Positions 1-23,717 of a stretch of DNA of 64,000 nucleotides are shown here, piece after piece. The translations under genes were made by a program, and so were the position numbers. The stretch's first letter is position 1; every line of letters begins with the position of its first letter. The notes beneath the pieces were generated by a model, which saw only the letters and a list, made by a program, of their open reading frames with translations, had not been told where the DNA came from and made no database searches. The stretch comes from Synechococcus sp. (GTDB lineage Bacteria > Cyanobacteriota > Cyanobacteriia > PCC-6307 > Cyanobiaceae): positions 1,080,203 through 1,144,202 of the forward strand of contig JBJBEO010000001.1 in the NCBI GenBank assembly GCA_047284725.1, given 5' to 3'.

Positions 1-702
1 TTTGATGAATACGAAGCGTTGATGGAGGAGCCAGAGGAGCTTCCCAGTGGCTCCACAACCTTCATGCCGGCTGTTCAGGAGCGACTGGAACTGCTGGTCG
101 GCCCATCCGTTGCGCTCTCGTGTCCCTACGGACAAGCGATGCTGGTGCGTGATCAGGAGTACGGCAATCACGTCAAGGACCTGTTCGTGAAGCTGATCCG
201 CGCCGATCGAGACGACGGGATCGTTCTTGACGGCCAGAACCTTTCCAGCTACAGCACTGACTCGCTGCGTGAGGCGTTTGCCTATTGCGCCCCCTCGTCG
301 CAGTTCTTTGAGGGGACCATCCTGCAGAACATCTGCAAATTCCAGCCCAGTCGCTATCAGAAATCCGCCTATTTCTGGTCGGTGCTGCTGGGAGTGGACT
401 CCGAGATCCGAGCCTTGCCCGGTGGCTACGACACCACCATTGGCACGGCCAAGCCCAGTGGTCTCTCGATCGATTCGCAGTATCTGCTGCAGGTGATCGC
501 AGCCCTGTCGGGAACGGCGTCGGTCGTGCTTCTCGATCTCAGTGATTGTTCCTTCGGCAAGCGCTTTGTCGAGGGCCTGGAACTGATCCTTCAACGCTGC
601 GCAGGACGCAAGACGATTCTGGTGAATGGCAGTGGTCGTGTTCTGGAACGGCTGATTGCGAACCAATCGACCCTCGTGCTGTCGCCCGCATCGGGGGGAT
701 GA
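1..702 (+). CDS. C-terminal part of a type I secretion (HlyB-like) ABC transporter with a degenerate nucleotide-binding domain; 5' end lies outside the window
   Basis: Frame is open from base 1. Motifs FFEGTILQNI, LPGGYDTTIG and LSIDS..VVLLD match HlyB-type NBD spacing, but there is no Walker A. Lies directly upstream of a second ABC gene and hlyD. Confidence 0.8.
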   Translation, partial: FDEYEALMEEPEELPSGSTTFMPAVQERLELLVGPSVALSCPYGQAMLVRDQEYGNHVKDLFVKLIRADRDDGIVLDGQNLSSYSTDSLREAFAYCAPSSQFFEGTILQNICKFQPSRYQKSAYFWSVLLGVDSEIRALPGGYDTTIGTAKPSGLSIDSQYLLQVIAALSGTASVVLLDLSDCSFGKRFVEGLELILQRCAGRKTILVNGSGRVLERLIANQSTLVLSPASGG

Positions 703-752
703 AGGCCTGATCCCTTCACGTCTTTGACGATCGCATTTCCTTTCCTGCTGCC

Positions 753-2885
753 ATGACTCTTTCCCGTTCTCTGACCCGCGACCTGACGCTCAGCTCGGAG
801 GCTCCCCTCGCCTTCTGTCTGCGCTTGTTTCTGCAGAGCCTGCAATGGACCGGTCAAAGCTCTGATTTCGCCAGTGTGATGGGGCGCGATCCCCGCAGCC
901 TCGACCTGGTGGATGCACGCAATGTTCTGCTCAGGCTTGGTTACAACACACGTTTATTGCAGATCAATGATTTCAACGACCTGAAAACCACACTGCTGCC
1001 GGCCCTCTACGTCTCGCCTGACGACCAACCGTTTGTGCTGCAGAACGGCCCGGACGAAGGCCTTCAGGTGGTCAACGCCAGTGGTGTGTTCCCCCTCGAC
1101 GCCGTCGCGCCGGGTGGATGGATTCTGGTGCTGGACGACACGGAGCTGAATCAGCGTTCATCCTTCATTGAGATTCTGTTGCTTCGCTTCTCCACGAAGA
1201 TCAGAACGCTCTATCTGATCAGCTTTGCGATCGCATTGCTGTCATTGGCGCTGCCTTTTTACATTCGCGCTGTTTACAACATCGCCATTCCAGCCCGCAG
1301 TCTGAGCTCCACCTTCTGGCTGCTGATCGGTGGTGCCTTCGTGTTCACCCTCGATCTGAATTTAAGGCAGTGGCGCGTGAAGCTGCTCTCCAATCTGGGC
1401 GGCCGATTGGATGTGTTGTTTGGCCTCAAGTTGCTGCAGAAATTTCTGGGTCTTGATTTCCGGCAACTGGAAATGATGGGCTACGGAGGCTTCAGCAGTC
1501 GCTCGCGCAATCTCGAGTCGATTCTTGCCTATGCGCAGGGGCCTCTGGCTCTGGCCTTGCTCGATTCCCCCTTTGTCTTCCTCTATCTGCTGGCGATCTG
1601 GTGGCTTGGCGGTGCGCTTGTGCTCGTGCCGATTGTGATCATGGTCTTGAGCGGCGTGTTGATTGCCTTCCTCTCGCGCTACTACAGCAGTGCGCAGGAA
1701 TTGAACATCACCACGGGCATCAGTCTGTTCCAGGCACAGCAGGAACTGGTGCGCCGCTTTCTGGAGGTGCGTCTCTCCAATCTGGAGTGGGTGTGGTTCC
1801 AGCGTCTGCGTGGACTGTCGGGTCAAAGCACCTCCACCAGCCTGACGATCAACGAACAGGTGGGCCGACTTCAGGTGATCTCCTCCACCGCCTCGCAGCT
1901 GGCCGGTGTGATCACCTTGGGCGTGGGGTGCTGGTTTGCCTTCCAGTCCCAGGACCCCAAGGTGTACGGAAACCTGATCGCCGCCATGTTCCTGGTGTGG
2001 CGTGTGTTCACGCCGTTCCAGTACTTCATGAGTGCTCTGCTGCGCTTTGAGGCGGTGCGCCGTCAGTACGACCAGTTCGATCAGTTCATGCGTCTTAAGA
2101 CCGGTGATCGTCCCACCAATCTGTCGACCTACGAGGGATTCCGTTTCTCCGGCTACATCGAAATGACGGCTGTCTCCTGCCGCCTGGCTTACGACTCCTC
2201 CTTGCAGCTGACCCGTTGTTCGATGCGGGCGACGCCCGGGGAAATTCTTGCTCTGACGGGCAAATCCGGATCCGGCAAGTCGGTGGCGCTGCGGGTGATT
2301 GATCAGTTGTATCCGGTAAGCAGCGGCACGCTGCTGTTTGACGGCAAGGATCACCGGCAGTTCTCAGCCGATGCGATTCAGCGCAACATCGCCTATGTGT
2401 TGCCGTCACCCCAATTTCTGCCCGGCACCATCTGGGACAACCTTGTTGCCATGAACCCGGATGCCCGTTTTGACGATGTGCAACGGGTTTGCGATCAACT
2501 CGAACTCACCGCCTTCATCGCCTCGTTCCCCGATGGTTATGAATCGATCATCGATCACCAGGCGCTCTATCAGATCCCGATCGGCATCCGCCGATTGTTG
2601 TCGCTCGCGCAGGCCCTGATCAAGGATGCACCGATCCTGCTGATCGATGACATCACGCAGGGATTGACTCCAGAGCAGTTTGAGGTGGTGGCGAAGGTGG
2701 TGCCCACCTTGTCGCAATCCCACTTCAGCCATCAGAAGCGCACGGTGATTCTCTCGACCGATAACGCCATGCTGCTGGATCTTGCCGACAGGATCTGCAT
2801 CCTTGATAAGGGCGTGACCGCTTTTGAAGGCACCCAGGACGAACTCAAGCAGAGTTTGCAGAAGAACAGCGCGATGCCGGGATGA
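753..2885 (+). CDS. Type I secretion ABC transporter (C39-like domain, TMD, NBD), HlyB/LapB-like
   Basis: 710 aa. N-terminal C39-like region without catalytic Cys/His, hydrophobic TMD, Walker A GKSGSGKS, FPDGYES, ILLIDD, ADRICILDKG. Confidence 0.9.
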   Translation: MTLSRSLTRDLTLSSEAPLAFCLRLFLQSLQWTGQSSDFASVMGRDPRSLDLVDARNVLLRLGYNTRLLQINDFNDLKTTLLPALYVSPDDQPFVLQNGPDEGLQVVNASGVFPLDAVAPGGWILVLDDTELNQRSSFIEILLLRFSTKIRTLYLISFAIALLSLALPFYIRAVYNIAIPARSLSSTFWLLIGGAFVFTLDLNLRQWRVKLLSNLGGRLDVLFGLKLLQKFLGLDFRQLEMMGYGGFSSRSRNLESILAYAQGPLALALLDSPFVFLYLLAIWWLGGALVLVPIVIMVLSGVLIAFLSRYYSSAQELNITTGISLFQAQQELVRRFLEVRLSNLEWVWFQRLRGLSGQSTSTSLTINEQVGRLQVISSTASQLAGVITLGVGCWFAFQSQDPKVYGNLIAAMFLVWRVFTPFQYFMSALLRFEAVRRQYDQFDQFMRLKTGDRPTNLSTYEGFRFSGYIEMTAVSCRLAYDSSLQLTRCSMRATPGEILALTGKSGSGKSVALRVIDQLYPVSSGTLLFDGKDHRQFSADAIQRNIAYVLPSPQFLPGTIWDNLVAMNPDARFDDVQRVCDQLELTAFIASFPDGYESIIDHQALYQIPIGIRRLLSLAQALIKDAPILLIDDITQGLTPEQFEVVAKVVPTLSQSHFSHQKRTVILSTDNAMLLDLADRICILDKGVTAFEGTQDELKQSLQKNSAMPG

Positions 2886-2953
2886 CCTGACGCCCCCGAG
2901 CCGTCTGCTTGCTGTCAACCACGTTTCTTCCACTCTCTTTCCTCTTAAACGTC

Positions 2954-4339
2954 ATGACCACCACCTCCGCTTCCTCCTCCACTCCCTCCAACAACAGCTC
3001 CAGCCTGTCAACCGACAGTCTGCTCAGCTCCTTCTCTTCCCTGACCACGTCCGACACCTCGGCGTTGATCGGTCGCAATCGCCTCAATCAGGCCCTCGAA
3101 CTCGAAGAACCGCGCGACAATAAATTCCTGCGGCGAACACTGTTCGGTCTGGGCGGGGCGGCGCTGATTTTCTTCCCCTGGGCGCTGCTCACACCGATCA
3201 CGCAGGTGGTGCAAGCGTCCGGTGAGGTGGTTCCCAAGGGTTCGGTGAGTGTTCTCCAGCACCTGGAAGGCGGGATCGTTTCGAATGTGTCGGTGCAGAA
3301 CGGCCAGACTGTGAGCAAAGGCGATGTGCTTCTGACGCTCAATCCCAAACTGGTTGGCAGTGAATATGCGGCGATGCAGGCCAAGCTGGAAGCGTTGCTG
3401 CTGCAACAGCAACAGCTCCAGGCCGCCATCCGTGGTGATGGAAAGCTTCCAGAGGACACGGTTGGATCCGGTGAGCCTGCCAACGCCAAGATTGCTGAGG
3501 CTCAGCAGGCACTGCTCGATAGCCGTTTGAGCAACACTGCCGATCAGGTGGAGGCATCCAAAGCGATCGTGGCTGAAAAAGAGGCTGAGGTGGCTGGTCT
3601 GTCCGACCAGTTGCGCCTCACCATTGAGGAACGTGAGATGTGGGGGCAGCTCACCGATTCCGGTGCAGCGTCACAACTGCAGTACCTCACGGCCAGAGCC
3701 AAGGTGGCTGAAACCCGCACGGCTTTGAATGAGTCTCGCAAGGCACTCAGTCAGGCCAAGGCGAATCTGCGCGGTCTGAATTCAGGCCTTGTGTTTGAGC
3801 AGAATTCCCAGATTGCCCAGCTCGTCAATGAAGAGCAGGTGGTGGCTGAAAACATCCAGAAGATCAAGTTTCAGCTGGATCGCACCAAAGTCACCGCACC
3901 GGTGGATGGTGTGGTGAGTGACCTGCGTTTCCATGCCCCTGGCGCTGTGGTGGGTCCTGGTGCTGTGGTGGGGGCCGTGGTGCCTGCCGGCAGCAACAAG
4001 CTGGCGGAGATCCGCATTCCTTCCCAGGACATCGGCTTTGTCAAGGTGGGGCAGGACGTGAAGGTGAACCTTGCGCCCTATGACTCCTCGGTGTATGGAT
4101 CGATTCCTGGTCAGTTGGTGAGTATTTCCGGCGACACAGTGCAGGATCCGGATAACCGCCAGTTTTATTACATCGGTCAGGTGCAGCTCGAGCGCCAGAC
4201 CGTACATCCCTCAGGCAAGAAATACCCGATTCAGGTGGGTATGCCTGTGGTGGCTGATATCCAGGGCCAGCGCAGCAATGTGTTGCGTTATCTGTTCCAG
4301 CCGTTTGTGCGCACGATGGGCGGTGCTCTGAGGGAGTGA
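2954..4339 (+). CDS. hlyD: HlyD-family type I secretion membrane fusion protein
   Basis: Single TM, ASGEVVPKG..LQHLEGGIV, coiled coil, VTAPVDGVV, DIGFVKVGQ, GMPVVADI..YLFQP; ATG at 2954 chosen. Confidence 0.92.
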   Translation: MTTTSASSSTPSNNSSSLSTDSLLSSFSSLTTSDTSALIGRNRLNQALELEEPRDNKFLRRTLFGLGGAALIFFPWALLTPITQVVQASGEVVPKGSVSVLQHLEGGIVSNVSVQNGQTVSKGDVLLTLNPKLVGSEYAAMQAKLEALLLQQQQLQAAIRGDGKLPEDTVGSGEPANAKIAEAQQALLDSRLSNTADQVEASKAIVAEKEAEVAGLSDQLRLTIEEREMWGQLTDSGAASQLQYLTARAKVAETRTALNESRKALSQAKANLRGLNSGLVFEQNSQIAQLVNEEQVVAENIQKIKFQLDRTKVTAPVDGVVSDLRFHAPGAVVGPGAVVGAVVPAGSNKLAEIRIPSQDIGFVKVGQDVKVNLAPYDSSVYGSIPGQLVSISGDTVQDPDNRQFYYIGQVQLERQTVHPSGKKYPIQVGMPVVADIQGQRSNVLRYLFQPFVRTMGGALRE

Positions 4340-4380
4340 TCACCGGCGTTTCGCGCCGCCTCTCAGTTTGCATTCAGGTT

Positions 4381-4407
4381 CAAACCCCCTGCGCTGCAGG
4401 GGGTTTG
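4381..4407 (+). terminator. 12-bp perfect hairpin between hlyD and the giant gene (terminator or RNA-stability element)
   Basis: caaaccccctgc-gct-gcagggggtttg; weak U-tail. Confidence 0.55.
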
Positions 4408-4527
4408 CTGTTATCAGCGTATTCTCAGGGTTCTAGAGGTTCGTCCCTCAGTGACTGAATCCTGTTTTGCAAGAGAAGCGGAATAACTTGAAAACATCAC
4501 CTAGTAGTGCCTTCAGGACGACGAACG

Positions 4528-7500
4528 ATGGTTGACGAAAATCTCACCTCTGATCAAACCGGTTTTGATGCTGCTGGTACCGATGAGCAGACCAAACAGG
4601 TTGTCCAGGCTTCTGAGCAGCAAGTTCACGTGCCCGGTGGCCGTACAGCTCCAGTTGAGGGCAATACAGAGGTCCCTGATGTGCCCTATGAGGGCGAACC
4701 CGAGACGGTGAATCCGGGGAAGCCCCCAGCCAATGCAGTGGGTCCTGAGATTGAGGTGCAGACCCAACCCCAAGGCCTCGGCGGGGGCGTCACTCTTGCT
4801 TCTGAAGAGCCGGTTGAGGCGGATGAGCCTGAAACGCTACAACTTCTTGAATCTCCTGTTCCTACGGCGGATCCAATCATCACGGAAACAGTCGATGAAG
4901 GGGTCGCTCCTGCCATTGAGCCCGAGCCGGAGCCGGAGCCGGATCCAGAGCCTCAGCTCGAATTTTCGTTGGATGATCCACAGCTGGTGACGCCTGATGC
5001 AGGTACACCAGATGGTTCAGCACCGGTGGCGGTTGGTGATAACACCGATCAATCTCCTGTGAGTGTGACGACACGGGTTGCGACTCCCGTGCCTGGTCAA
5101 CTTGATTTTGACCTGAATCTCACATCTGGCAGTCCGATAACTATTCGGGACTCACTGACCGGCCAAACTGTTCAATTAAGAATTGACCGGGTCGATGGTG
5201 AGGATGTTGTTGTTGGATTTATTGGTAGTGGTGCCAATGAAACAACAGTTTTTACTGTTTCCGGCAATGAGCTTGATGGAACCATCACGCTGACTCAGTT
5301 CCGGTCGGTTCTGCATGGAGATCCACAAACCGATCCTAATACGAATGATCGTGTTGGCCTGTTTGGTCAAAATCCTGATAACGAGACTCCACCAGCGGGC
5401 TCTGAGCGCATTGTGCTTGTTGGTACATTGACCCAAGCTGACGGCCAGTCAGTTACGCAAGAAATTGATATCACGAATGCCATTGTTTTTACTGATGATG
5501 AGCCTGAGGTCAATGTTGAGGGTTCAGACATTGAGGGTTTGTTTGTCACGTATGATGGAAATACTTCCCTCGATGGTAATTTTCAAGGCTCTTCGAATGG
5601 AGATGTGCCTGCTGCTGGAACAGATTCTGATTCAGTTGTGATACCTGCTGCTTCGATTGAAGCTGCTTTCGTTTCTTCTGTTGATTACAATGCAGATGGA
5701 CCTGCTGCATCGGATATATCGCCTACTGGCGAACCTTCACCAGTTGTATCTGATTACCAGCTAGTTTTATTCGAAGACATCGTATCTGGAGTCACCCCTG
5801 TTCGAGATGATGACGGCTCTATTTGGCGCAGTCAGGGTGAGGAAGTCATATGGTTTGAAGTTTTAGGAGTCAATGGAGACCTTCTCAAGGTTGAAGGGCG
5901 AATTGATTTGGCTGGCGAGCAGATTGTTGTTTTTGATGTTGTTATTAATTCTGATCCCGCCGAGCCCGATGTTTTCGGCGATCTTGTCTTTACGCAATAC
6001 GAACAGTTGGATCATCTTGTTCCAACTTCGTCCGACTACACTTCCGATGAAAGAACACTTGGTAATAATCAGCTCTTTGTCGAGCAGCAAATAACTGCTA
6101 CAGATGCAGATTTTGATACTGATACGGCTACGGCTCGTATTGATCTTGGCAATAATTTGATTGTTGGTGATGACGGCCCAGCGATTGGCGAACTTGGCGA
6201 GGTTGATCTGAGTCAGATCACGCTGGTGACATCGGATGCAGCAGCAGCTGGTGGTAACTACACCGGCGGGTTTAGCGCCAGTGCGGATGCTGATTTTGAT
6301 GCAGCGTTTGAAGCCGTTGTGAGTGCTGCAGTGCTTGCAGGGGAGATTGATTTTGGAGCGGATATTGGAGGGACTGAGACTGCGGATGTCTCGAACTACA
6401 AGTTGGAGCTTGGTGATCTCGTTGGGGTCGGTGGTGTAACGGGGCTAACGAGTGAGGAACCCGGAACGGAAGGCGATCCCATTTATGTGTTCCTGAATGC
6501 TGCTGGAACGCAGTTGGTTGGTAGTACGAATGCTGGATATGACATTGCGGTCGATGGGATCGATGGAACGGTTGCATTCACGGTTGACCTGACGGGTGTG
6601 AATGACGTCGGCAATGTGGAGCTGACGCAGTATCAGGCTGTGACTCAGCCTGTTGCTCAAACGGATCCGGCTGCTCCGAACGATCCAATCACGGGTTATC
6701 CGAGTGATGAGGTGACGCTGGACGGTCTGGTGAAGTTGTCAGGAACAGTGACAGCGACAGACAGTGATGGAGACAAGGCGACGACAACACTGAGCACCGA
6801 CATTGGCGACAGTCTGGAACTGCGTGATGACGGCCCAGCGATTGGCGAACTTGGCGAGGTTGATCTGAGTCAGATCACGCTGGTGACATCGGATGCAGCA
6901 GCAGCTGGTGGTAACTACACCGGCGGGTTTAGCGCCAGTGCGGATGCTGATTTTGATGCAGCGTTTGAAGCCGTTGTGAGTGCTGCAGTGCTTGCAGGGG
7001 AGATTGATTTTGGAGCGGATATTGGAGGGACTGAGACTGCGGATGTCTCGAACTACAAGTTGGAGCTTGGTGATCTCGTTGGGGTCGGTGGTGTAACGGG
7101 GCTAACGAGTGAGGAACCCGGAACGGAAGGCGATCCCATTTATGTGTTCCTGAATGCTGCTGGAACGCAGTTGGTTGGTAGTACGAATGCTGGATATGAC
7201 ATTGCGGTCGATGGGATCGATGGAACGGTTGCATTCACGGTTGACCTGACGGGTGTGAATGACGTCGGCAATGTGGAGCTGACGCAGTATCAGGCTGTGA
7301 CTCAGCCTGTTGCTCAAACGGATCCGGCTGCTCCGAACGATCCAATCACGGGTTATCCGAGTGATGAGGTGACGCTGGACGGTCTGGTGAAGTTGTCAGG
7401 AACAGTGACAGCGACAGACAGTGATGGAGACAAGGCGACGACAACACTGAGCACCGACATTGGCGACAGTCTGGAACTGCGTGATGACGGCCCAGCGATT

Positions 7501-13500: not shown

Positions 13501-16500
13501 AGCGCCAGTGCGGATGCTGATTTTGATGCAGCGTTTGAAGCCGTTGTGAGTGCTGCAGTGCTTGCAGGGGAGATTGATTTTGGAGCGGATATTGGAGGGA
13601 CTGAGACTGCGGATGTCTCGAACTACAAGTTGGAGCTTGGTGATCTCGTTGGGGTCGGTGGTGTAACGGGGCTAACGAGTGAGGAACCCGGAACGGAAGG
13701 CGATCCCATTTATGTGTTCCTGAATGCTGCTGGAACGCAGTTGGTTGGTAGTACGAATGCTGGATATGACATTGCGGTCGATGGGATCGATGGAACGGTT
13801 GCATTCACGGTTGACCTGACGGGTGTGAATGACGTCGGCAATGTGGAGCTGACGCAGTATCAGGCTGTGACTCAGCCTGTTGCTCAAACGGATCCGGCTG
13901 CTCCGAACGATCCAATCACGGGTTATCCGAGTGATGAGGTGACGCTGGACGGTCTGGTGAAGTTGTCAGGAACAGTGACAGCGACAGACAGTGATGGAGA
14001 CAAGGCGACGACAACACTGAGCACCGACATTGGCGACAGTCTGGAACTGCGTGATGACGGCCCAGCGATTGGCGAACTTGGCGAGGTTGATCTGAGTCAG
14101 ATCACGCTGGTGACATCGGATGCAGCAGCAGCTGGTGGTAACTACACCGGCGGGTTTAGCGCCAGTGCGGATGCTGATTTTGATGCAGCGTTTGAAGCCG
14201 TTGTGAGTGCTGCAGTGCTTGCAGGGGAGATTGATTTTGGAGCGGATATTGGAGGGACTGAGACTGCGGATGTCTCGAACTACAAGTTGGAGCTTGGTGA
14301 TCTCGTTGGGGTCGGTGGTGTAACGGGGCTAACGAGTGAGGAACCCGGAACGGAAGGCGATCCCATTTATGTGTTCCTGAATGCTGCTGGAACGCAGTTG
14401 GTTGGTAGTACGAATGCTGGATATGACATTGCGGTCGATGGGATCGATGGAACGGTTGCATTCACGGTTGACCTGACGGGTGTGAATGACGTCGGCAATG
14501 TGGAGCTGACGCAGTATCAGGCTGTGACTCAGCCTGTTGCTCAAACGGATCCGGCTGCTCCGAACGATCCAATCACGGGTTATCCGAGTGATGAGGTGAC
14601 GCTGGACGGTCTGGTGAAGTTGTCAGGAACAGTGACAGCGACAGACAGTGATGGAGACAAGGCGACGACAACACTGAGCACCGACATTGGCGACAGTCTG
14701 GAACTGCGTGATGACGGCCCAGCGATTGGCGAACTTGGCGAGGTTGATCTGAGTCAGATCACGCTGGTGACATCGGATGCAGCAGCAGCTGGTGGTAACT
14801 ACACCGGCGGGTTTAGCGCCAGTGCGGATGCTGATTTTGATGCAGCGTTTGAAGCCGTTGTGAGTGCTGCAGTGCTTGCAGGGGAGATTGATTTTGGAGC
14901 GGATATTGGAGGGACTGAGACTGCGGATGTCTCGAACTACAAGTTGGAGCTTGGTGATCTCGTTGGGGTCGGTGGTGTAACGGGGCTAACGAGTGAGGAA
15001 CCCGGAACGGAAGGCGATCCCATTTATGTGTTCCTGAATGCTGCTGGAACGCAGTTGGTTGGTAGTACGAATGCTGGATATGACATTGCGGTCGATGGGA
15101 TCGATGGAACGGTTGCATTCACGGTTGACCTGACGGGTGTGAATGACGTCGGCAATGTGGAGCTGACGCAGTATCAGGCTGTGACTCAGCCTGTTGCTCA
15201 AACGGATCCGGCTGCTCCGAACGATCCAATCACGGGTTATCCGAGTGATGAGGTGACGCTGGACGGTCTGGTGAAGTTGTCAGGAACAGTGACAGCGACA
15301 GACAGTGATGGAGACAAGGCGACGACAACACTGAGCACCGACATTGGCGACAGTCTGGAACTGCGTGATGACGGCCCAGCGATTGGCGAACTTGGCGAGG
15401 TTGATCTGAGTCAGATCACGCTGGTGACATCGGATGCAGCAGCAGCTGGTGGTAACTACACCGGCGGGTTTAGCGCCAGTGCGGATGCTGATTTTGATGC
15501 AGCGTTTGAAGCCGTTGTGAGTGCTGCAGTGCTTGCAGGGGAGATTGATTTTGGAGCGGATATTGGAGGGACTGAGACTGCGGATGTCTCGAACTACAAG
15601 TTGGAGCTTGGTGATCTCGTTGGGGTCGGTGGTGTAACGGGGCTAACGAGTGAGGAACCCGGAACGGAAGGCGATCCCATTTATGTGTTCCTGAATGCTG
15701 CTGGAACGCAGTTGGTTGGTAGTACGAATGCTGGATATGACATTGCGGTCGATGGGATCGATGGAACGGTTGCATTCACGGTTGACCTGACGGGTGTGAA
15801 TGACGTCGGCAATGTGGAGCTGACGCAGTATCAGGCTGTGACTCAGCCTGTTGCTCAAACGGATCCGGCTGCTCCGAACGATCCAATCACGGGTTATCCG
15901 AGTGATGAGGTGACGCTGGACGGTCTGGTGAAGTTGTCAGGAACAGTGACAGCGACAGACAGTGATGGAGACAAGGCGACGACAACACTGAGCACCGACA
16001 TTGGCGACAGTCTGGAACTGCGTGATGACGGCCCAGCGATTGGCGAACTTGGCGAGGTTGATCTGAGTCAGATCACGCTGGTGACATCGGATGCAGCAGC
16101 AGCTGGTGGTAACTACACCGGCGGGTTTAGCGCCAGTGCGGATGCTGATTTTGATGCAGCGTTTGAAGCCGTTGTGAGTGCTGCAGTGCTTGCAGGGGAG
16201 ATTGATTTTGGAGCGGATATTGGAGGGACTGAGACTGCGGATGTCTCGAACTACAAGTTGGAGCTTGGTGATCTCGTTGGGGTCGGTGGTGTAACGGGGC
16301 TAACGAGTGAGGAACCCGGAACGGAAGGCGATCCCATTTATGTGTTCCTGAATGCTGCTGGAACGCAGTTGGTTGGTAGTACGAATGCTGGATATGACAT
16401 TGCGGTCGATGGGATCGATGGAACGGTTGCATTCACGGTTGACCTGACGGGTGTGAATGACGTCGGCAATGTGGAGCTGACGCAGTATCAGGCTGTGACT

Positions 16501-18837
16501 CAGCCTGTTGCTCAAACGGATCCGGCTGCTCCGAACGATCCAATCACGGGTTATCCGAGTGATGAGGTGACGCTGGACGGTCTGGTGAAGTTGTCAGGAA
16601 CAGTGACAGCGACAGACAGTGATGGAGACAAGGCGACGACAACACTGAGCACCGACATTGGCGACAGTCTGGAACTGCGTGATGACGGCCCAGCGATCAC
16701 AAATCAAGATGGAACAAGCACGACCAATCTGAATCTTGCCTATGTCACGACGCCTACTAATCAAACTCTAGATCTTCTCCAATGGGATTTTGGTGCTGAT
16801 AATGGAGGTGATGTCTATCTCACTACCAATGATGGTTTTGTGCCAATTTCTGTTTCTACCTCAACAGATGGTTTTTCTATCGATACTGATAGTGTTGCCT
16901 ACGATCCTGTTTCTGGAGTTTATGGTTTCAATGTCATCTATGATGAAACAGGAGAAGTGATAACCAGTTACTCATTGAATCCTGATTCAGGTGTTAATGA
17001 TGCTGTTATTTGGTATCAAGTTCCTGGTGAGACCACTTTCATTGATGTTCCTGGTTCCGCTTCTCAGGGAGGAAACACCGATTTCCTGTCGAGTGACATA
17101 CAGGACGGCGATGATACATTCACGATTATCACTGTTGCGTCTCGGGACTCAAGTCAGACAGATTTCTCTGCCACTGTATATACAGATCCTGTCTGGGTTG
17201 AAAACGAAGATACTGTTAATGGCAGTACTTCTGGTTGGGGCGCTGGCAGTAATAATTTTACGGCTGGTTCTTCCATATCATTTTTGTTTTATCAGGAAGG
17301 AACAGCGACTGTCAGCATTGTCCCAAACTTTGCTCCCCTTACTGATGATACGTTACAGGTTACTGGTAATGATTATCTTGTAGACGGCTTCGCTATCTCT
17401 TTGGAGAGTGTGACTGGTTCTGCTGCCTACTCTCTGACAGTTAAGGTTAATTATGTAACTACTGATGGAATTACCGACTTCAACCAGTACACCGAATACG
17501 TCTTCACAAATGTGATTCCTTCCTTGCCTGGGAGTCAAAGCTATATTGCTGTTCTAACTGCAGAAGGAGTCTCCATTTATGGTGAAACTGATTACAATGC
17601 CAATGGCGATTCTGCGACAGTCATTGTTTCTGTGGCAGCTCCTGCGCTAGATCCTGGTGAAACATTCCTTGGCATATCATCCGTTTCTTATTTCAACAAT
17701 GATCCTGAAGGTAACCAGTACAAGCTTAACAGGCCCAATATTCTTACTGAAAATGTTGATCGTCCTGATCTTAGCTACCAATTAGATTTTGAAATTACAG
17801 ATGGTGACTTCGATAACAGCACGTTCACGATGTCTGTCTTGATGGATGGCAACGATGCAGGTGATGTTGTCACCTCTGCTTCTTATGTGGCCCCTGTGGC
17901 GATTGATCTTGATGGGGACGGAATGGTCTCTTATCAATCTGATTTCAATCTAAATGTTCTTGATTCATCAATCGTCTACGCCGCGTTTGTTGCTCCTGTA
18001 GATGGTTTACTGGCTTATGATTACAATCAAGATGGAATTCTTGATGAGTCTCGTGAAATTAATTTCATGATGTGGGGTGATGATCCATCGGTCTTGACCG
18101 ACGTTCAGGCTTTGGCTGCTTACTTCGATTCCAATGGCGATGGAGTTCTAGACTCCAATGATTCCACCTTTGCTGATTTTGGTGTCTGGTCTGATCTCAA
18201 TCTCGATGGTCAGCAGCAGGAGGGAGAGTTTTATGGCTTGAATGAATTGGGCATTGAGTCCATTTCGCTAGAATATTCGTACGATTCTTCGGCTCTGCAG
18301 TCATCTGCTGATGGTGGTGTCATTGTTTATGGACAGGTGGAGGTGGAATATGAAGACGGCTCCACTGGCCTTGCTGAAGATGTCGCGTTTGCTGTTCAGT
18401 CATCTCCTGATGAGTTAGCTTCAGCGCAGGAGGGTGATCCAACCACTGAGGATGCCATGAGTTCCAGTCCGCTGATTGATGAGTTGGTGTCGGGTTATCT
18501 CGATACGATGCAGGCCTCGGGAGATACGGATGGCGATGGTCATGTCAGCCAGGTCGAGTTGGCCTACGGTCTGGATGAGGCGGTCAGCAACTTCCTCGAC
18601 AGCAATGGCCTCTCTGCCGATGAGTTCCACTCCATTCAGCAGGAAGTCTTCAATGAGCTGGCTGATCAACTCAGTGACCTGGATACAGACGCCTCCATCG
18701 GCAGTGTGGCTGATGCCGCAGGTGATGCGGATGCGGCCTCTGTGCTGGCGGCTTTGGAATCCAATCTCGACGACCTGGTCGTTGCCAACCATCTCGAGCA
18801 CGACGATTACTCCTCGGAAGCCTCGGCGATGGTTTGA
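4528..18837 (+). CDS. Giant acidic repetitive protein (~4,770 aa), putative T1SS-secreted adhesin or surface fibre with DUF5801/T1SS-repeat-like domains and a C-terminal Ca-binding FrpC-SPM-like domain
   Basis: One uninterrupted 14.3-kb ORF, D/E/G/T/V rich, no signal peptide. 219-aa repeats with DFGAD, LTQY and TDSDGD..DDGP motifs. Adjacent to ABC/HlyD genes. Confidence 0.88.
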   Translation: MVDENLTSDQTGFDAAGTDEQTKQVVQASEQQVHVPGGRTAPVEGNTEVPDVPYEGEPETVNPGKPPANAVGPEIEVQTQPQGLGGGVTLASEEPVEADEPETLQLLESPVPTADPIITETVDEGVAPAIEPEPEPEPDPEPQLEFSLDDPQLVTPDAGTPDGSAPVAVGDNTDQSPVSVTTRVATPVPGQLDFDLNLTSGSPITIRDSLTGQTVQLRIDRVDGEDVVVGFIGSGANETTVFTVSGNELDGTITLTQFRSVLHGDPQTDPNTNDRVGLFGQNPDNETPPAGSERIVLVGTLTQADGQSVTQEIDITNAIVFTDDEPEVNVEGSDIEGLFVTYDGNTSLDGNFQGSSNGDVPAAGTDSDSVVIPAASIEAAFVSSVDYNADGPAASDISPTGEPSPVVSDYQLVLFEDIVSGVTPVRDDDGSIWRSQGEEVIWFEVLGVNGDLLKVEGRIDLAGEQIVVFDVVINSDPAEPDVFGDLVFTQYEQLDHLVPTSSDYTSDERTLGNNQLFVEQQITATDADFDTDTATARIDLGNNLIVGDDGPAIGELGEVDLSQITLVTSDAAAAGGNYTGGFSASADADFDAAFEAVVSAAVLAGEIDFGADIGGTETADVSNYKLELGDLVGVGGVTGLTSEEPGTEGDPIYVFLNAAGTQLVGSTNAGYDIAVDGIDGTVAFTVDLTGVNDVGNVELTQYQAVTQPVAQTDPAAPNDPITGYPSDEVTLDGLVKLSGTVTATDSDGDKATTTLSTDIGDSLELRDDGPAIGELGEVDLSQITLVTSDAAAAGGNYTGGFSASADADFDAAFEAVVSAAVLAGEIDFGADIGGTETADVSNYKLELGDLVGVGGVTGLTSEEPGTEGDPIYVFLNAAGTQLVGSTNAGYDIAVDGIDGTVAFTVDLTGVNDVGNVELTQYQAVTQPVAQTDPAAPNDPITGYPSDEVTLDGLVKLSGTVTATDSDGDKATTTLSTDIGDSLELRDDGPAIGELGEVDLSQITLVTSDAAAAGGNYTGGFSASADADFDAAFEAVVSAAVLAGEIDFGADIGGTETADVSNYKLELGDLVGVGGVTGLTSEEPGTEGDPIYVFLNAAGTQLVGSTNAGYDIAVDGIDGTVAFTVDLTGVNDVGNVELTQYQAVTQPVAQTDPAAPNDPITGYPSDEVTLDGLVKLSGTVTATDSDGDKATTTLSTDIGDSLELRDDGPAIGELGEVDLSQITLVTSDAAAAGGNYTGGFSASADADFDAAFEAVVSAAVLAGEIDFGADIGGTETADVSNYKLELGDLVGVGGVTGLTSEEPGTEGDPIYVFLNAAGTQLVGSTNAGYDIAVDGIDGTVAFTVDLTGVNDVGNVELTQYQAVTQPVAQTDPAAPNDPITGYPSDEVTLDGLVKLSGTVTATDSDGDKATTTLSTDIGDSLELRDDGPAIGELGEVDLSQITLVTSDAAAAGGNYTGGFSASADADFDAAFEAVVSAAVLAGEIDFGADIGGTETADVSNYKLELGDLVGVGGVTGLTSEEPGTEGDPIYVFLNAAGTQLVGSTNAGYDIAVDGIDGTVAFTVDLTGVNDVGNVELTQYQAVTQPVAQTDPAAPNDPITGYPSDEVTLDGLVKLSGTVTATDSDGDKATTTLSTDIGDSLELRDDGPAIGELGEVDLSQITLVTSDAAAAGGNYTGGFSASADADFDAAFEAVVSAAVLAGEIDFGADIGGTETADVSNYKLELGDLVGVGGVTGLTSEEPGTEGDPIYVFLNAAGTQLVGSTNAGYDIAVDGIDGTVAFTVDLTGVNDVGNVELTQYQAVTQPVAQTDPAAPNDPITGYPSDEVTLDGLVKLSGTVTATDSDGDKATTTLSTDIGDSLELRDDGPAIGELGEVDLSQITLVTSDAAAAGGNYTGGFSASADADFDAAFEAVVSAAVLAGEIDFGADIGGTETADVSNYKLELGDLVGVGGVTGLTSEEPGTEGDPIYVFLNAAGTQLVGSTNAGYDIAVDGIDGTVAFTVDLTGVNDVGNVELTQYQAVTQPVAQTDPAAPNDPITGYPSDEVTLDGLVKLSGTVTATDSDGDKATTTLSTDIGDSLELRDDGPAIGELGEVDLSQITLVTSDAAAAGGNYTGGFSASADADFDAAFEAVVSAAVLAGEIDFGADIGGTETADVSNYKLELGDLVGVGGVTGLTSEEPGTEGDPIYVFLNAAGTQLVGSTNAGYDIAVDGIDGTVAFTVDLTGVNDVGNVELTQYQAVTQPVAQTDPAAPNDPITGYPSDEVTLDGLVKLSGTVTATDSDGDKATTTLSTDIGDSLELRDDGPAIGELGEVDLSQITLVTSDAAAAGGNYTGGFSASADADFDAAFEAVVSAAVLAGEIDFGADIGGTETADVSNYKLELGDLVGVGGVTGLTSEEPGTEGDPIYVFLNAAGTQLVGSTNAGYDIAVDGIDGTVAFTVDLTGVNDVGNVELTQYQAVTQPVAQTDPAAPNDPITGYPSDEVTLDGLVKLSGTVTATDSDGDKATTTLSTDIGDSLELRDDGPAIGELGEVDLSQITLVTSDAAAAGGNYTGGFSASADADFDAAFEAVVSAAVLAGEIDFGADIGGTETADVSNYKLELGDLVGVGGVTGLTSEEPGTEGDPIYVFLNAAGTQLVGSTNAGYDIAVDGIDGTVAFTVDLTGVNDVGNVELTQYQAVTQPVAQTDPAAPNDPITGYPSDEVTLDGLVKLSGTVTATDSDGDKATTTLSTDIGDSLELRDDGPAIGELGEVDLSQITLVTSDAAAAGGNYTGGFSASADADFDAAFEAVVSAAVLAGEIDFGADIGGTETADVSNYKLELGDLVGVGGVTGLTSEEPGTEGDPIYVFLNAAGTQLVGSTNAGYDIAVDGIDGTVAFTVDLTGVNDVGNVELTQYQAVTQPVAQTDPAAPNDPITGYPSDEVTLDGLVKLSGTVTATDSDGDKATTTLSTDIGDSLELRDDGPAIGELGEVDLSQITLVTSDAAAAGGNYTGGFSASADADFDAAFEAVVSAAVLAGEIDFGADIGGTETADVSNYKLELGDLVGVGGVTGLTSEEPGTEGDPIYVFLNAAGTQLVGSTNAGYDIAVDGIDGTVAFTVDLTGVNDVGNVELTQYQAVTQPVAQTDPAAPNDPITGYPSDEVTLDGLVKLSGTVTATDSDGDKATTTLSTDIGDSLELRDDGPAIGELGEVDLSQITLVTSDAAAAGGNYTGGFSASADADFDAAFEAVVSAAVLAGEIDFGADIGGTETADVSNYKLELGDLVGVGGVTGLTSEEPGTEGDPIYVFLNAAGTQLVGSTNAGYDIAVDGIDGTVAFTVDLTGVNDVGNVELTQYQAVTQPVAQTDPAAPNDPITGYPSDEVTLDGLVKLSGTVTATDSDGDKATTTLSTDIGDSLELRDDGPAIGELGEVDLSQITLVTSDAAAAGGNYTGGFSASADADFDAAFEAVVSAAVLAGEIDFGADIGGTETADVSNYKLELGDLVGVGGVTGLTSEEPGTEGDPIYVFLNAAGTQLVGSTNAGYDIAVDGIDGTVAFTVDLTGVNDVGNVELTQYQAVTQPVAQTDPAAPNDPITGYPSDEVTLDGLVKLSGTVTATDSDGDKATTTLSTDIGDSLELRDDGPAIGELGEVDLSQITLVTSDAAAAGGNYTGGFSASADADFDAAFEAVVSAAVLAGEIDFGADIGGTETADVSNYKLELGDLVGVGGVTGLTSEEPGTEGDPIYVFLNAAGTQLVGSTNAGYDIAVDGIDGTVAFTVDLTGVNDVGNVELTQYQAVTQPVAQTDPAAPNDPITGYPSDEVTLDGLVKLSGTVTATDSDGDKATTTLSTDIGDSLELRDDGPAIGELGEVDLSQITLVTSDAAAAGGNYTGGFSASADADFDAAFEAVVSAAVLAGEIDFGADIGGTETADVSNYKLELGDLVGVGGVTGLTSEEPGTEGDPIYVFLNAAGTQLVGSTNAGYDIAVDGIDGTVAFTVDLTGVNDVGNVELTQYQAVTQPVAQTDPAAPNDPITGYPSDEVTLDGLVKLSGTVTATDSDGDKATTTLSTDIGDSLELRDDGPAITNQDGTSTTNLNLAYVTTPTNQTLDLLQWDFGADNGGDVYLTTNDGFVPISVSTSTDGFSIDTDSVAYDPVSGVYGFNVIYDETGEVITSYSLNPDSGVNDAVIWYQVPGETTFIDVPGSASQGGNTDFLSSDIQDGDDTFTIITVASRDSSQTDFSATVYTDPVWVENEDTVNGSTSGWGAGSNNFTAGSSISFLFYQEGTATVSIVPNFAPLTDDTLQVTGNDYLVDGFAISLESVTGSAAYSLTVKVNYVTTDGITDFNQYTEYVFTNVIPSLPGSQSYIAVLTAEGVSIYGETDYNANGDSATVIVSVAAPALDPGETFLGISSVSYFNNDPEGNQYKLNRPNILTENVDRPDLSYQLDFEITDGDFDNSTFTMSVLMDGNDAGDVVTSASYVAPVAIDLDGDGMVSYQSDFNLNVLDSSIVYAAFVAPVDGLLAYDYNQDGILDESREINFMMWGDDPSVLTDVQALAAYFDSNGDGVLDSNDSTFADFGVWSDLNLDGQQQEGEFYGLNELGIESISLEYSYDSSALQSSADGGVIVYGQVEVEYEDGSTGLAEDVAFAVQSSPDELASAQEGDPTTEDAMSSSPLIDELVSGYLDTMQASGDTDGDGHVSQVELAYGLDEAVSNFLDSNGLSADEFHSIQQEVFNELADQLSDLDTDASIGSVADAAGDADAASVLAALESNLDDLVVANHLEHDDYSSEASAMV
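6167..16697 (+). repeat. Tandem array of 16 apparently identical 657-bp (219-codon) units plus a 19-bp partial unit
   Basis: gtgatgacggcccagcgat recurs at 6167, 6824 ... 16679 (16 x 657). Identical antisense ORFs recur every 657 bp in the ORF track. Confidence 0.97.
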
Positions 18838-18860
18838 GGTCTGATGCCAACAGCGTGATG

Positions 18861-18896
18861 AAGAAGACGCCTGAGTCCAGGGCGTCTTCTTTTTTT
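18861..18896 (+). terminator. Rho-independent terminator of the giant gene
   Basis: aagaagacgcc-tgagtccag-ggcgtcttctt followed by a T run. Confidence 0.85.
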
Positions 18897-18915
18897 GTCA
18901 TGAGTCACTTTATGA

Positions 18916-19647
18916 TTGGATTGGGTTAATCAAGAGCCTGTGCAGGATCGTCTGCTTCTTATTGCTGATACTGGCTCCGATCAAGATCTTCTTCGTAAGC
19001 ATCTTGAAGCGAGAGGATTTTTTGTAGTTCGTGTTGATTCTGTTCAGGCGGCGCTAGACCATCTGCCTCACGGCGATGTTTCGCTCGTTCTTCTCGCTCT
19101 CAGTGAAGACGCCTTAACGCTTGAAAATAAGGATCGTTTTCTCCTCCATCAGCAGTTCCAGGCCGATCGTCTGACCATTCCCCTGTTTCACCTGCTTGAT
19201 GACGACAATTTTTCACTCCGCTCGGCGTCTCTGAAGGCAGGCGCCGATGACGTGTTGTCGCGTCCCTTTGCCTGGGAAGAGCTGGACGCACGAATCATGG
19301 CGTTGTTGCGTCGCGTGCGGATGGGGCAGTCCCATGCCGACGGAGACCTTCTCAGCCTTGATAACCTTGAATTCAACATCAAGACCCGAGAAGTCTGTCG
19401 AAATGACAGCAAAGCGAAACTGACGGTGAAGGAATTCGATCTGCTTAAATTCCTGTTTCATAATCTCGATCAGGTCGTATCTCGCCAGTCAATCCTGCAT
19501 GGTGTGTGGGGTCAGAGCTGGACTGGTGATGACAACCTTCTCGATGTGTACATCCGTTATCTCCGCAAGAAAATTGAACGGGAGGGGCAGCCTCAACTGA
19601 TTCAAACCGTAAAAGGTGTGGGTTACATCCTCAAAACGCCCACCTAA
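18916..19647 (+). CDS. Orphan OmpR/NblR-like response regulator with atypical receiver
   Basis: Winged-helix motifs LTVKEFDLL, VWG, NLLDVYIRYLRKKIE, IQTVKGVGY; receiver GADDVLSRPF. Start uncertain (TTG 18916 or GTG 18940). Confidence 0.85.
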   Translation: MDWVNQEPVQDRLLLIADTGSDQDLLRKHLEARGFFVVRVDSVQAALDHLPHGDVSLVLLALSEDALTLENKDRFLLHQQFQADRLTIPLFHLLDDDNFSLRSASLKAGADDVLSRPFAWEELDARIMALLRRVRMGQSHADGDLLSLDNLEFNIKTREVCRNDSKAKLTVKEFDLLKFLFHNLDQVVSRQSILHGVWGQSWTGDDNLLDVYIRYLRKKIEREGQPQLIQTVKGVGYILKTPT

Positions 19648-22700: not shown

Positions 22701-23717
22701 CACCACGCCATCGACCAGGGGCTGCTCCGGATTGAGCGGGTCGTAGAAGAAGGCGTTGACCGGCTTGGAGAAGTCGAGACCGCCGCAGAAGATCGGCAGC
22801 ACCCGGGCACCACGGAACTCCAGCTCCTGGATCACCGCCACGTAGTGAGCATCGTCACCGGTGACGATGTGACTGCGTTGCAGCACCAGACCGATCAACG
22901 GGCCCTGGCGCGCTTCATTGCTGAGGTCGTTTCGGCTGGCCGTCCAGTTGAGGTATTCCTTCAGGTCCTCGAACATCGAGGGGGCCAGGGGATGCCAGAT
23001 GCCCAGATCGGGGAACACCTCTGGATCGGCCACCTCCATGGCAGGGCGATCAGTGCTGTCCGACGCTGGGAAGACGTACTTGTCCGCCAGCATCAGCAGG
23101 AAGTTGCGCAGGTTATCCGGTGTGCCTCCCAGCCAGTACTGGAAGCTGAGCATGAAGCTGCGAGCATCCTGCGCCTTTTCCACGGGCAGGTACTTCAACA
23201 CCGTGGGCAGCGTGTTGAGGAGTTTGAGCATCGCGTCCTGGAAGCCGGCGCCGCCGGACTCCTTCCGCTTCTTCATGAAGCCGGCGATGGCGCTCTTGCT
23301 CTGCCCCAGCTGGGCCATCGAGAAGCTGCCCAGTTTGTTCAGGCGCATCACCTCGGGCATGGAGGGGAAGACCACAGCAGCCTTGAGGCGATCGCGATGG
23401 GGCGTGACGGCATCCACCACTTTCTGGGCCAGATCTTCAATGAAGATCAGCGAGGCCACAAACACATCGGCGGCAGCCACATCCGCCTGAAAGTCAGCGT
23501 AATTATCCGGATCCCGCAGTTCTTCAATCAGATAACCGCTCAGCTCAATCCCAAGCGGACCGTTCTGGGCATTGAGGCTTGTGGCCGCCTGGGTGAGAGC
23601 GTTCTGATACTGAGGCTCAAGCACCACGTACACAGCCTTCATCACTGACTGGTGGTTGTTGGGCTCAGCAGGAACAACCCGGCGATCGGCGGAGCGAACC
23701 TGCGTGAACATCGGCAT
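19707..23717 (-). CDS. chlH: Magnesium chelatase subunit H
   Basis: 1336 aa; [12 protein letters not shown] start, [39 protein letters not shown]. Confidence 0.98.

Follow-up and report, generated by a model that had tools for sequence, protein, structure and literature searches.

The locus described here shares parts with several characterized bacterial systems. In the LapA/LapBCE/LapD-LapG system of Pseudomonas fluorescens, a giant repetitive cargo passes through an assembly of ATP-binding cassette (ABC) transporter, membrane-fusion protein and outer-membrane factor, and control by cyclic di-GMP (c-di-GMP) acts through LapD and LapG on proteolytic release. The MARTX system of Vibrio (RtxB/RtxD/RtxE/TolC) is a type I secretion system (T1SS) that, like the present locus, combines two ABC proteins with one adaptor; unlike the pair examined below, both of its ATPases have functional Walker motifs, and the likeness is one of general description rather than of sequence comparison. 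The exporters TM287/288, TmrAB and TAP1/2 join two different half-transporters, and one nucleotide site of the pair, the degenerate site familiar from TAP, has Asp for Glu and a changed His. The window studied here is a 64,000-nucleotide stretch of the Synechococcus sp. genome (contig JBJBEO010000001.1 of assembly GCA_047284725.1, positions 1,080,203 to 1,144,202), whose first 19,647 bases carry most of a locus that is, by kind, a T1SS. On balance, sequence comparisons favour a picocyanobacteria-specific T1SS variant with six dedicated genes, probably linked to c-di-GMP, that would export a Ca2+-stiffened surface fibre.

The original prediction, made from the sequence alone, described five co-oriented genes that end at the core gene chlH. 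Open reading frame (ORF) calls recover this arrangement, with all five genes on the + strand of window positions 1-19647 and a ChlH-type gene next. The same prediction called for the upstream sequence to be inspected for a TolC or a further transporter. This inspection yielded an extra conserved gene, up227, and the TolC-like gene proved to lie far away from the locus. In the coordinates below, G000 is the window's own genome; other G numbers denote sampled relatives and L numbers denote pieces of their loci.

G000:C1:1078360-1079043, - strand: up227, an MshEN-type gene divergent from ABC1, about 1.2-1.8 kb before window base 1.
G000:C1:1079120-1080904: the whole ABC1 gene, at most 594 aa, with its start about 1.08 kb before the window.
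1..702, + strand: the 3' end of ABC1 (233 codons), a half-transporter that combines a transmembrane domain with a pseudo-nucleotide-binding domain.
753..2885, + strand: ABC2, 710 aa, with a weak C39-like N-terminal domain, a transmembrane domain and a nucleotide-binding domain (NBD).
2909..4339, + strand: an HlyD-family T1SS membrane-fusion adaptor (TIGR01843, Pfam HlyD_3).
4507..18837, + strand: the giant cargo gene, 4,776 aa if read from its GTG, or 4,769 aa if read from an ATG at 4528.
18916..19647, + strand: an OmpR/PhoB-type regulator with a pseudo-receiver domain and a Trans_reg_C domain.

A synteny search across Synechococcus and Cyanobium genomes, which had also been proposed, found that the locus is not unique to the window. 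Of 151 genomes sampled from the family, 22 carry an orthologue of ABC1 (44-51% identity, E < 1e-140), and the C-terminal module of the cargo was matched in 18 of the 21 other ABC1-positive genomes. Gene order is conserved in all eight loci that were fetched, which represent several genera: a divergent up227 is followed by ABC1, ABC2, HlyD and then one or more cargo genes whose products end in an SPM and a C-terminal domain. The regulator comes next in five of these loci, and chlH flanks five. The cargos vary in size and modules, with open frames ranging from 1,171 to 5,016 aa. When contigs from one genome per species were scanned with a pattern made from the ABC1 alignment, 27 loci were found, titled as Cyanobium, Vulcanococcus, freshwater and marine Synechococcus (including WH 8017) and Aphanothece stagnina; three belong to metagenome-assembled genomes labelled as non-cyanobacterial. 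By gene content and order, the locus is an accessory module specific to picocyanobacteria, with variable cargo and often located beside chlH.

Pieces of such loci have been noticed before. Giant ORFs were noted as a class in 2008 (PMC2441476, in the accessible text), and the available portion of the genome note for strain NB0720_010 lists a 4,609-aa DUF5801 giant without its export genes (PMC9387257). No description of the twin-ABC locus was found in the literature searched, which did not extend to subscription-only work on WH8102 swimming mutants. Nor does that literature describe a system that combines obligatory twin ABC proteins lacking any canonical ATP site with a partner of MshEN type, a pseudo-receiver regulator and, replacing RTX repeats, a non-cleaving SPM.

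Both ABC proteins are clearly homologous to T1SS transporters and lie outside the curated subfamilies, with neither reaching the curated HlyB/PrtD/LssB-type score. Full-length ABC1 matches Pfam ABC_membrane (E 5.9e-13), and Pfam found no ABC_tran match in its C-terminal 233 aa; PF00664 is the sole Pfam family on the listed best 120 of 250 ABC1 database homologues (E <= 1e-30). The best NCBIfam T1SS-ABC score for ABC1 is 39.5 bits against a cut-off of 510. ABC2 matches ABC_tran (E 5.3e-19); among NCBIfam models it scores highest with the LssB-type T1SS permease/ATPase (272.6 bits, under the cut-off of 693.1). A family profile of ABC2 aligns over residues 80-711 to residues 58-691 of HlyB (7sgr) and over residues 72-709 to residues 67-709 of PCAT1. 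The first ~145 aa of ABC2 show a weak alignment with the C39-like parts of these two proteins; Pfam gives no match there, with Peptidase_C39 appearing at E 0.23 in one orthologue only. One source automatically names the homologues of both ABC1 and ABC2 'LapB', and the LapA system has one such ABC gene where the present locus has two.

The state of each NBD motif was read from an alignment in which the ABC1 and ABC2 regions of nine genomes, belonging to several genera, were set against the canonical MsbA-like protein of G000.

Walker A: absent from ABC1 in 9/9; GxxGxGK[ST] in ABC2 in 9/9.
Walker B: D-L in ABC1, with N-L in G058 (and D-G in the paralogous ABC1' described below); D-D in ABC2, a Glu-to-Asp change, in 9/9.
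Switch His: absent from ABC1 in 9/9; Asp in ABC2 in 8/9, with Ser in G109.
Signature: LSxD in ABC1 in 8/9, with LTxD in G109; LPxG[VIL] in ABC2 in 8/9, with IPIGI in G000.
Q-loop Gln: absent from ABC1 in 9/9; not kept in ABC2.

ABC1 also has a shortened C-terminus and has lost the catalytic Glu and the H-loop in all nine genomes, and yet in 18 sequences its pseudo-NBD is still rich in invariant columns. Residues G503, G506, G508 and K509 of the ABC2 Walker A motif are invariant in 18 sequences. The conservation of these motif states in nine of nine genomes implies constraint and speaks against decay, and the pseudo-domain of ABC1 is, as judged by these alignments, a stable and selected state. 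The view that both NBDs are degenerate therefore holds wholly for ABC1 and only in part for ABC2, which retains an intact Walker A.

Each nucleotide site of an ABC dimer is formed by the Walker motifs of one subunit and the signature of the other. Because ABC2 has Asp in place of both the Glu and the His and ABC1 lacks a Walker A, neither composite ATP site is predicted to be canonical; one appears to be dead, and the other is non-canonical, similar to the degenerate site of TmrAB or TAP with its Asp for Glu. ABC1 and ABC2 most likely form a heterodimer. In 5/5 loci where a single piece contains both genes in full, the ABC1 stop codon overlaps the ABC2 start, a layout suggestive of 1:1 coupling; in G000, 50 nt separate the two genes. 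TM287/288, TmrAB and TAP1/2 keep one fully canonical site, whereas here the partner site is without a Walker A. According to the accessible text of PMC8277102, the degenerate sites of heterodimeric exporters have Asp where the catalytic Glu would be, and binding of ATP can by itself bring about the switch from the inward- to the outward-facing form.

The adaptor is a genuine T1SS membrane-fusion protein by family score, reaching 278.2 bits with TIGR01843 (cut-off 208.65) and E 9.2e-19 with Pfam HlyD_3. Its orthologues share 48-63% identity and occupy the same position in all eight fetched loci. A single TolC-like gene with two OEP repeats is found in the genome, outside the locus at G000:C1:266-268 kb. 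In one relative (G132), an in-frame stop divides ABC2 into two ORFs, of 179 and 532 aa (L027/L028), which reflects either a sequencing error or a broken copy.

G000 also carries a paralogous twin-ABC and HlyD locus (G000:C1:816141-831011, about 250 kb before the window) at 29-31% identity, which is divergent from a gene for a 3,191-aa acidic protein without an RTX motif. Its NBDs are more degenerate: ABC2' has Lys changed to Arg in Walker A, Glu to Gln in Walker B and His to Asp; in ABC1', the Lys of Walker A is missing. Relatives of ABC1' were seen in G058, G109 and G103. The design based on a degenerate pair thus recurs in this lineage.

The product of up227 is a 227-aa protein without a Pfam family. 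All but one of the 22 ABC1-positive genomes have the gene, against none of the 129 ABC1-negative ones, and in 18 of the 21 it adjoins ABC1 in divergent orientation (the exceptions are G058, G112 and G046). A family profile matches PilF of Thermus (6f8l, E 3e-17) in three GSPII stretches, and matches Vibrio MshE (5htl, E 8.4e-8) at exactly residues 8-60, which make up its 53-residue c-di-GMP-binding domain (PMC5013675). The family motif RLGxxLIxxGLIxxxxLxxAxxxQ, followed by a 5-residue spacer and RLG...G, corresponds to the motif published there. The family consensus contains motif I in full, and the spacer has five residues in 8/9 sequences. An AF2 model (mean predicted local distance difference test, pLDDT, 89.9) consists of an alpha/beta N-domain and two four-helix units. 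When this model was compared with 48,161 chains by VIA-align, the top match was MshE with c-di-GMP (Z 6.6 over 60 residues, root-mean-square deviation 1.8), followed by the PilF GSPII-B domain with c-di-GMP (Z 5.9) and PilF (Z 5.3); values of Z 5-7 are within the chance range for helical bundles, which counts against resting the assignment on them.

On the profile and model comparisons, up227 is probably a tandem MshEN/GSPII protein that couples the system to c-di-GMP. It shares with MshE and PilF the four-helix unit bearing an RLG...G...L...Q motif. Unlike them, it stands alone, has an unfamiliar alpha/beta N-domain, lacks an ATPase fusion and diverges in half of motif II. A predicted complex of up227, the ABC1 pseudo-NBD, the ABC2 NBD and c-di-GMP scored 0.63, and a control in which ABC2 was replaced scored 0.61, so that the score speaks neither for binding nor against it. 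The arrangement also differs from LapD/LapG in that the candidate receptor is cytoplasmic and of MshEN type, and control would act on export or transcription, not on proteolytic release. The original prediction had seen no LapG or LapD. For LapG this is upheld by the absence of a Peptidase_C93 match from the 99.98%-complete genome in a search whose control was positive; a search with LapD_MoxY_N also gave no match, and its control was likewise silent.

Within the 2.58 Mb of the genome in which the locus resides there are 22 GGDEF matches, one of them at window positions 38175-38636 on the - strand, which is an unusually rich c-di-GMP network for this group. At least three GGDEF matches are present in 22/22 locus-bearing genomes and in 32/129 others. 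Inside the window's own genus, this holds for two of two locus-bearing genomes and for none of three others, these three congeners having no GGDEF match. In all three genomes of genus g46, ABC1 is immediately preceded by a GGDEF gene of the same orientation. This gene encodes about 477 aa and overlaps the ABC1 start (L066 4995-6428, L067 and L068). In the same genus, up227 is on another contig in G112 and G046.

The cargo is a giant repetitive protein, as originally described, and its length of 4,770 aa is to be corrected slightly: the ORF has 4,776 aa from its GTG, and an NCBI protein that is otherwise identical starts seven codons later and has 4,769 aa. The following segments can be distinguished.

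4507..4929, + strand: an acidic, Pro/Glu-rich N-terminal stretch of ~140 aa without a family match.
4930..6165, + strand: two divergent DUF5801-type modules of ~200 aa each (Pfam DUF5801 E 8.3e-18).
6169..16680, + strand: 16 tandem repeats of 657 bp (219 aa) that are identical at the DNA level.
16681..17892, + strand: a non-repeated, strain-variable region of ~400 aa without a Pfam match under E 0.01.
17893..18405, + strand: a FrpC-type, SPM-like Ca2+-binding domain without the scissile Asp (PDB 6sjw, E 4.6e-15).
18406..18834, + strand: an acidic C-terminal domain of ~140 aa that aligns across the cargos of eight genomes, including G000.

The 16 repeat copies make up 73% of the giant protein and contain no mismatch at the DNA level. 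Support for the array comes from an independent public sequencing run (X1), in which the 16.5-kb flanking contig has a word depth of 131.3 and a 687-bp cyclic repeat unitig has a depth of 2265.9; the ratio of 17.3 gives no exact copy number and is taken as a sign of many identical copies. On the strength of this ratio, the repeat array is real and not an assembly artefact. All public runs that contain the stretch do so as contigs, the two rows marked as possible RNA are probably DNA, and gaps in its cover in the metagenomes X3, X8 and X15 carry no meaning. The strain sequenced in X1 is near-identical and differs from the window at two flank positions and at six positions of the repeat unit (window 6169-6825). 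Since the six differences are found in one collapsed unitig, they are shared by all of the ~17 copies, which suggests concerted evolution or a recent re-expansion of the array.

An iterated hidden Markov model recognizes the two divergent modules with E 3.3e-36 and 1.4e-47. The same type of module occurs in the cargos of G009 (19 copies), G125 (16), G047 (13), genus g46, G109 and G132. An AF2 model built from a 15-sequence alignment is beta-rich (pLDDT 78). Its best and only significant match in the PDB is 9q5u, a carbohydrate-binding module with a split domain from Aeromonas salmonicida, at Foldseek E 9.7e-5 and a TM score of only 0.24. One repeat compared with PDB sequences by phmmer gave no match. 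The strings 'DDGP' at the start of the module and 'TxTDxDGD' at its end are nearly invariant. In the extender domains of SiiE and RTX adhesins, clusters of Asp residues at module junctions bind Ca2+ and stiffen the rod. By analogy, we infer that the Asp clusters at the junctions of the present modules would do the same.

The original prediction that the giant protein is without RTX nonapeptides agrees with a search for GGxGxD, which has 0 matches in the 4,776 aa; this also sets the protein apart from LapA. The motif is present in some cargos of relatives (11 matches in G047). The strain-variable region may be a distal or ligand-binding part. Only three relatives align into it, and by Atlas features its nearest neighbours are DUF5801 clusters at 0.95, with recognition below the mark, which serves as a lead only.

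Pfam and NCBIfam searches of the last 718 aa of the cargo gave only sub-threshold EF-hand matches. Residues 405-534 of this segment match the solved FrpC module 6sjw, and the NCBI copy of the giant carries a precomputed PF26745 match, named SPM by the Atlas. In FrpC, Asp414 attacks its own carbonyl, cleaves an Asp-Pro bond and forms a reactive anhydride (PMC7078468, in its accessible text). The alignment begins at the first residue of the module, which is the Pro, and the domain keeps four DxDxDG-type, EF-hand-like Ca2+ sites and the second Trp of FrpC and ApxIVA. The residue before the conserved Pro is Ala in G000 and A, G, G, T, P, V, N and A across eight genomes, so that Asp is found in 0/8 and clip-and-link chemistry is unlikely. 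Homology to the FrpC module, which had been recognized at the outset, therefore stands without the Asp of the Asp-Pro bond and hence probably without the cleavage chemistry. The domain is also situated differently, near the C-terminus of a non-RTX protein. It is probably a unit that folds when triggered by Ca2+, not a clip-and-link device.

The SPM-like domain is followed by the acidic domain of ~140 aa. ORFs of 130-190 aa that encode little beyond this C-terminal domain are located beside giant genes in six loci (L022/L023 of G093, L024 of G022, L029 of G058, L020 of G047, L026 of G109 and L027 of G132). They may be extra small substrates or signal-domain decoys. Because the C-terminal domain is common to otherwise variable cargos and also occurs alone on small ORFs, it is a probable recognition signal, and it is presumed to be a secretion signal or recognition domain.

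The regulator has a clear Trans_reg_C winged helix (E 6.4e-26), and its receiver domain scores only 24 bits, below the cut-off. Its best NCBIfam match is NblR (146 bits, below the cut-off of 300). The phospho-acceptor Asp is replaced in five of six aligned, locus-linked orthologues, with Ala in G000 and Asp kept in G109; the acidic pair, together with the conserved Thr and Lys, is missing as well. The earlier observation that the phospho-Asp is lacking is thus borne out, with Ala at its position in G000. All of the closest relatives of this protein (45-52% identity) adjoin cargo genes of the same system, and more distant OmpR paralogues have ~40% identity. From these alignments, the regulator is locus-specific and of pseudo-receiver type.

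The borders of the island and the signals within it can be listed as follows.

4386..4403, + strand: a weak hairpin resembling a terminator, in the gap that separates hlyD from the giant gene, a consensus match only.
18860..18892, + strand: a strong hairpin resembling an intrinsic terminator, with a 13-bp stem and then a T-run, directly 3' of the giant gene.
19707..23717, - strand: chlH, 1,336 aa, a convergent core gene (CobN/Mg-chelatase E 0, and DUF3479).

The hairpin that follows the giant gene suggests at least three transcription units. Sites like the weaker hairpin are no commoner in the stretch than in shuffled sequences, and a scan for sigma-70 promoters found fewer sites than in shuffles. 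The giant gene has a GC content of 0.44-0.55, compared with 0.57-0.63 in its flanks. The chlH gene is the border of the island and is outside the system. On the left side (L001 8841-8918 and 4086-5840), the border is preceded by folP, tpiA and a DUF393-like gene, and 3 kb further upstream is the canonical MsbA-like ABC exporter, intact in every motif, that was the internal reference for the NBD alignment.

These parts can be assembled into a proposed mechanism. ABC1 and ABC2 would form a heterodimer with a single nucleotide site, made from the Walker A and Walker B Asp of ABC2 and the 'LSxD' of ABC1, which may be slow or may only bind nucleotide. Together with HlyD and the genome's single TolC-like protein, the pair would recognize the cargo through its conserved acidic C-terminal domain and export it C-terminus first. 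Outside the cell, Ca2+ from seawater would cause the SPM-like domain to fold as a nucleus that hinders back-sliding, so that Ca2+-dependent folding of this domain and then of the modules could act as a ratchet. The fibre itself would be long and Ca2+-stiffened, built from at least 18 DUF5801-type modules that meet at Asp-rich junctions. In the cytoplasm, the tandem MshEN/GSPII protein up227 would sense c-di-GMP, and the pseudo-receiver OmpR-type regulator would set transcription without phosphorylation. The fibre would probably serve cell-cell or cell-particle adhesion or form a protective surface layer; adhesion or aggregation is inferred here because it best fits the logic of c-di-GMP. The original prediction had likewise proposed attachment, aggregation or an anti-grazing role. 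A bolder version, which we regard as improbable though worth stating, is that the c-di-GMP-loaded MshEN protein docks on the ABC1 pseudo-NBD and switches on the ABC2 site, with Ca2+ folding giving directionality. Canonical ATP hydrolysis would then have been abandoned, export of the giant fibre would be gated post-translationally, and the locus would be a genetic switch between single-cell and colonial or aggregated life in Cyanobium and Synechococcus.

Several observations weigh against a c-di-GMP-linked fibre exporter. The up227 gene was not found in ABC1-positive G084, a member of genus g46, and the regulator is missing from 3/8 fetched loci. Motif II of up227 keeps the RLG and the Gly and has a divergent second half in place of LxxxLxxQ; in G000 itself, motif I has Thr for an expected Leu and the spacer has seven residues, not five. 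Pfam MshEN (PF05157) is silent on up227 both by hmmscan (E <= 0.1) and in a genome search (E <= 1), and Foldseek gave no match to its model at E <= 0.001 (5htl, E 0.29). The co-occurrence with GGDEF genes could reflect habitat and lineage, as related genomes are not independent, and open-ocean picocyanobacteria are entirely without c-di-GMP genes (PMC3747582, in the portion available). One rival reading is that up227 is a GSPII-fold protein-protein adaptor or chaperone that binds no c-di-GMP, its association being a by-product of lineage and habitat, and this has a substantial, if minority, chance of being correct. Nucleotide binding is not common to all GSPII domains; accessible parts of PMC11731258 and PMC12002112 describe one from PilF that needed re-engineering before it could bind. 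The first GSPII unit of up227 has no Arg, in addition to the divergence of motif II and the silence of Pfam. However, motif I is complete in the consensus, the two best structural matches are both c-di-GMP-bound domains, and the operon of genus g46 begins with a GGDEF gene. Alternatively, the same machine may export something other than an adhesin, with c-di-GMP having no direct part: the giant could be released, or could be a SwmB-like motility, S-layer-associated, anti-grazer or anti-competitor structure. No N-terminal retention module or anchor was identified in the cargo, so the protein may be released and not displayed, and neither LapG nor LapD was found. SwmB is given as the only characterized giant protein of marine Synechococcus in the accessible text of PMC2441476, and, like other marine Synechococcus giant ORFs, it resembles the present cargo as a giant, compositionally atypical and patchily distributed island gene. 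The genome note for NB0720_010, in its available portion, proposes defence or competition for the 4,609-aa giant (PMC9387257). By description, SwmB is set apart as part of the motility system of clade III strains without c-di-GMP genes; none of the 27 ABC1-pattern loci is titled WH 8102, the SwmB sequence itself being outside this comparison. This alternative is considered unlikely.

The supply of energy is a further difficulty for the favoured T1SS reading, as neither composite ATP site is predicted to be canonical. Changes of the catalytic Glu to Asp and of the His cripple hydrolysis in HlyB and P-glycoprotein, and ABC2 is far below the NCBIfam T1SS cut-offs (272 vs 693). The ABC pair might therefore not be a motor at all, but a gated channel or receptor in which nucleotide binding is a switch and proton-motive force, Ca2+ folding or both provide the drive. 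Both composite sites are non-canonical in 9/9 genomes, the paralogous locus is still more degenerate, and Ca2+-binding modules are present all along the cargo. Yet the ABC2 Walker A is strictly kept, which argues for the use of nucleotide, and no gene for an alternative energizer is seen in the locus; a pair that is no motor seems distinctly doubtful. Broken ATPases and a collapsed or inflated repeat could also mean that the locus is decaying or misassembled, given its degenerate motifs, the classic assembly hazard posed by 16 identical repeats and the in-frame stop in ABC2 of G132. This explanation is largely refuted and is scarcely credible, since the frames are intact at 44-68% identity in 22 sampled genomes and hundreds of metagenome proteins, the same substitutions recur, and the depth ratio of 17.3 supports the array.

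If the favoured reading of the locus is correct, several features would be of wider use. A natural T1SS ABC pair without a canonical ATP site bears on the role of ATP hydrolysis in these systems, and up227 may represent a second route, besides LapD/LapG, for c-di-GMP control of a T1SS adhesin. The non-cleaving SPM variant is relevant to protein-ligation tools based on this domain. Picocyanobacteria are among the most abundant primary producers, and both the export of carbon and losses to grazers are affected by whether the cells are single or gathered in colonies and aggregates. We know of no genes for the switch between these two states in picocyanobacteria. A 2026 ISME J paper on Baltic strains names no switch genes in its accessible text. 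The locus, carried by roughly one in seven of the family genomes sampled, is a testable candidate for such a switch between single and clumped cells. An export switch gated by c-di-GMP, if it proves to be true, would have consequences for grazing and carbon export.

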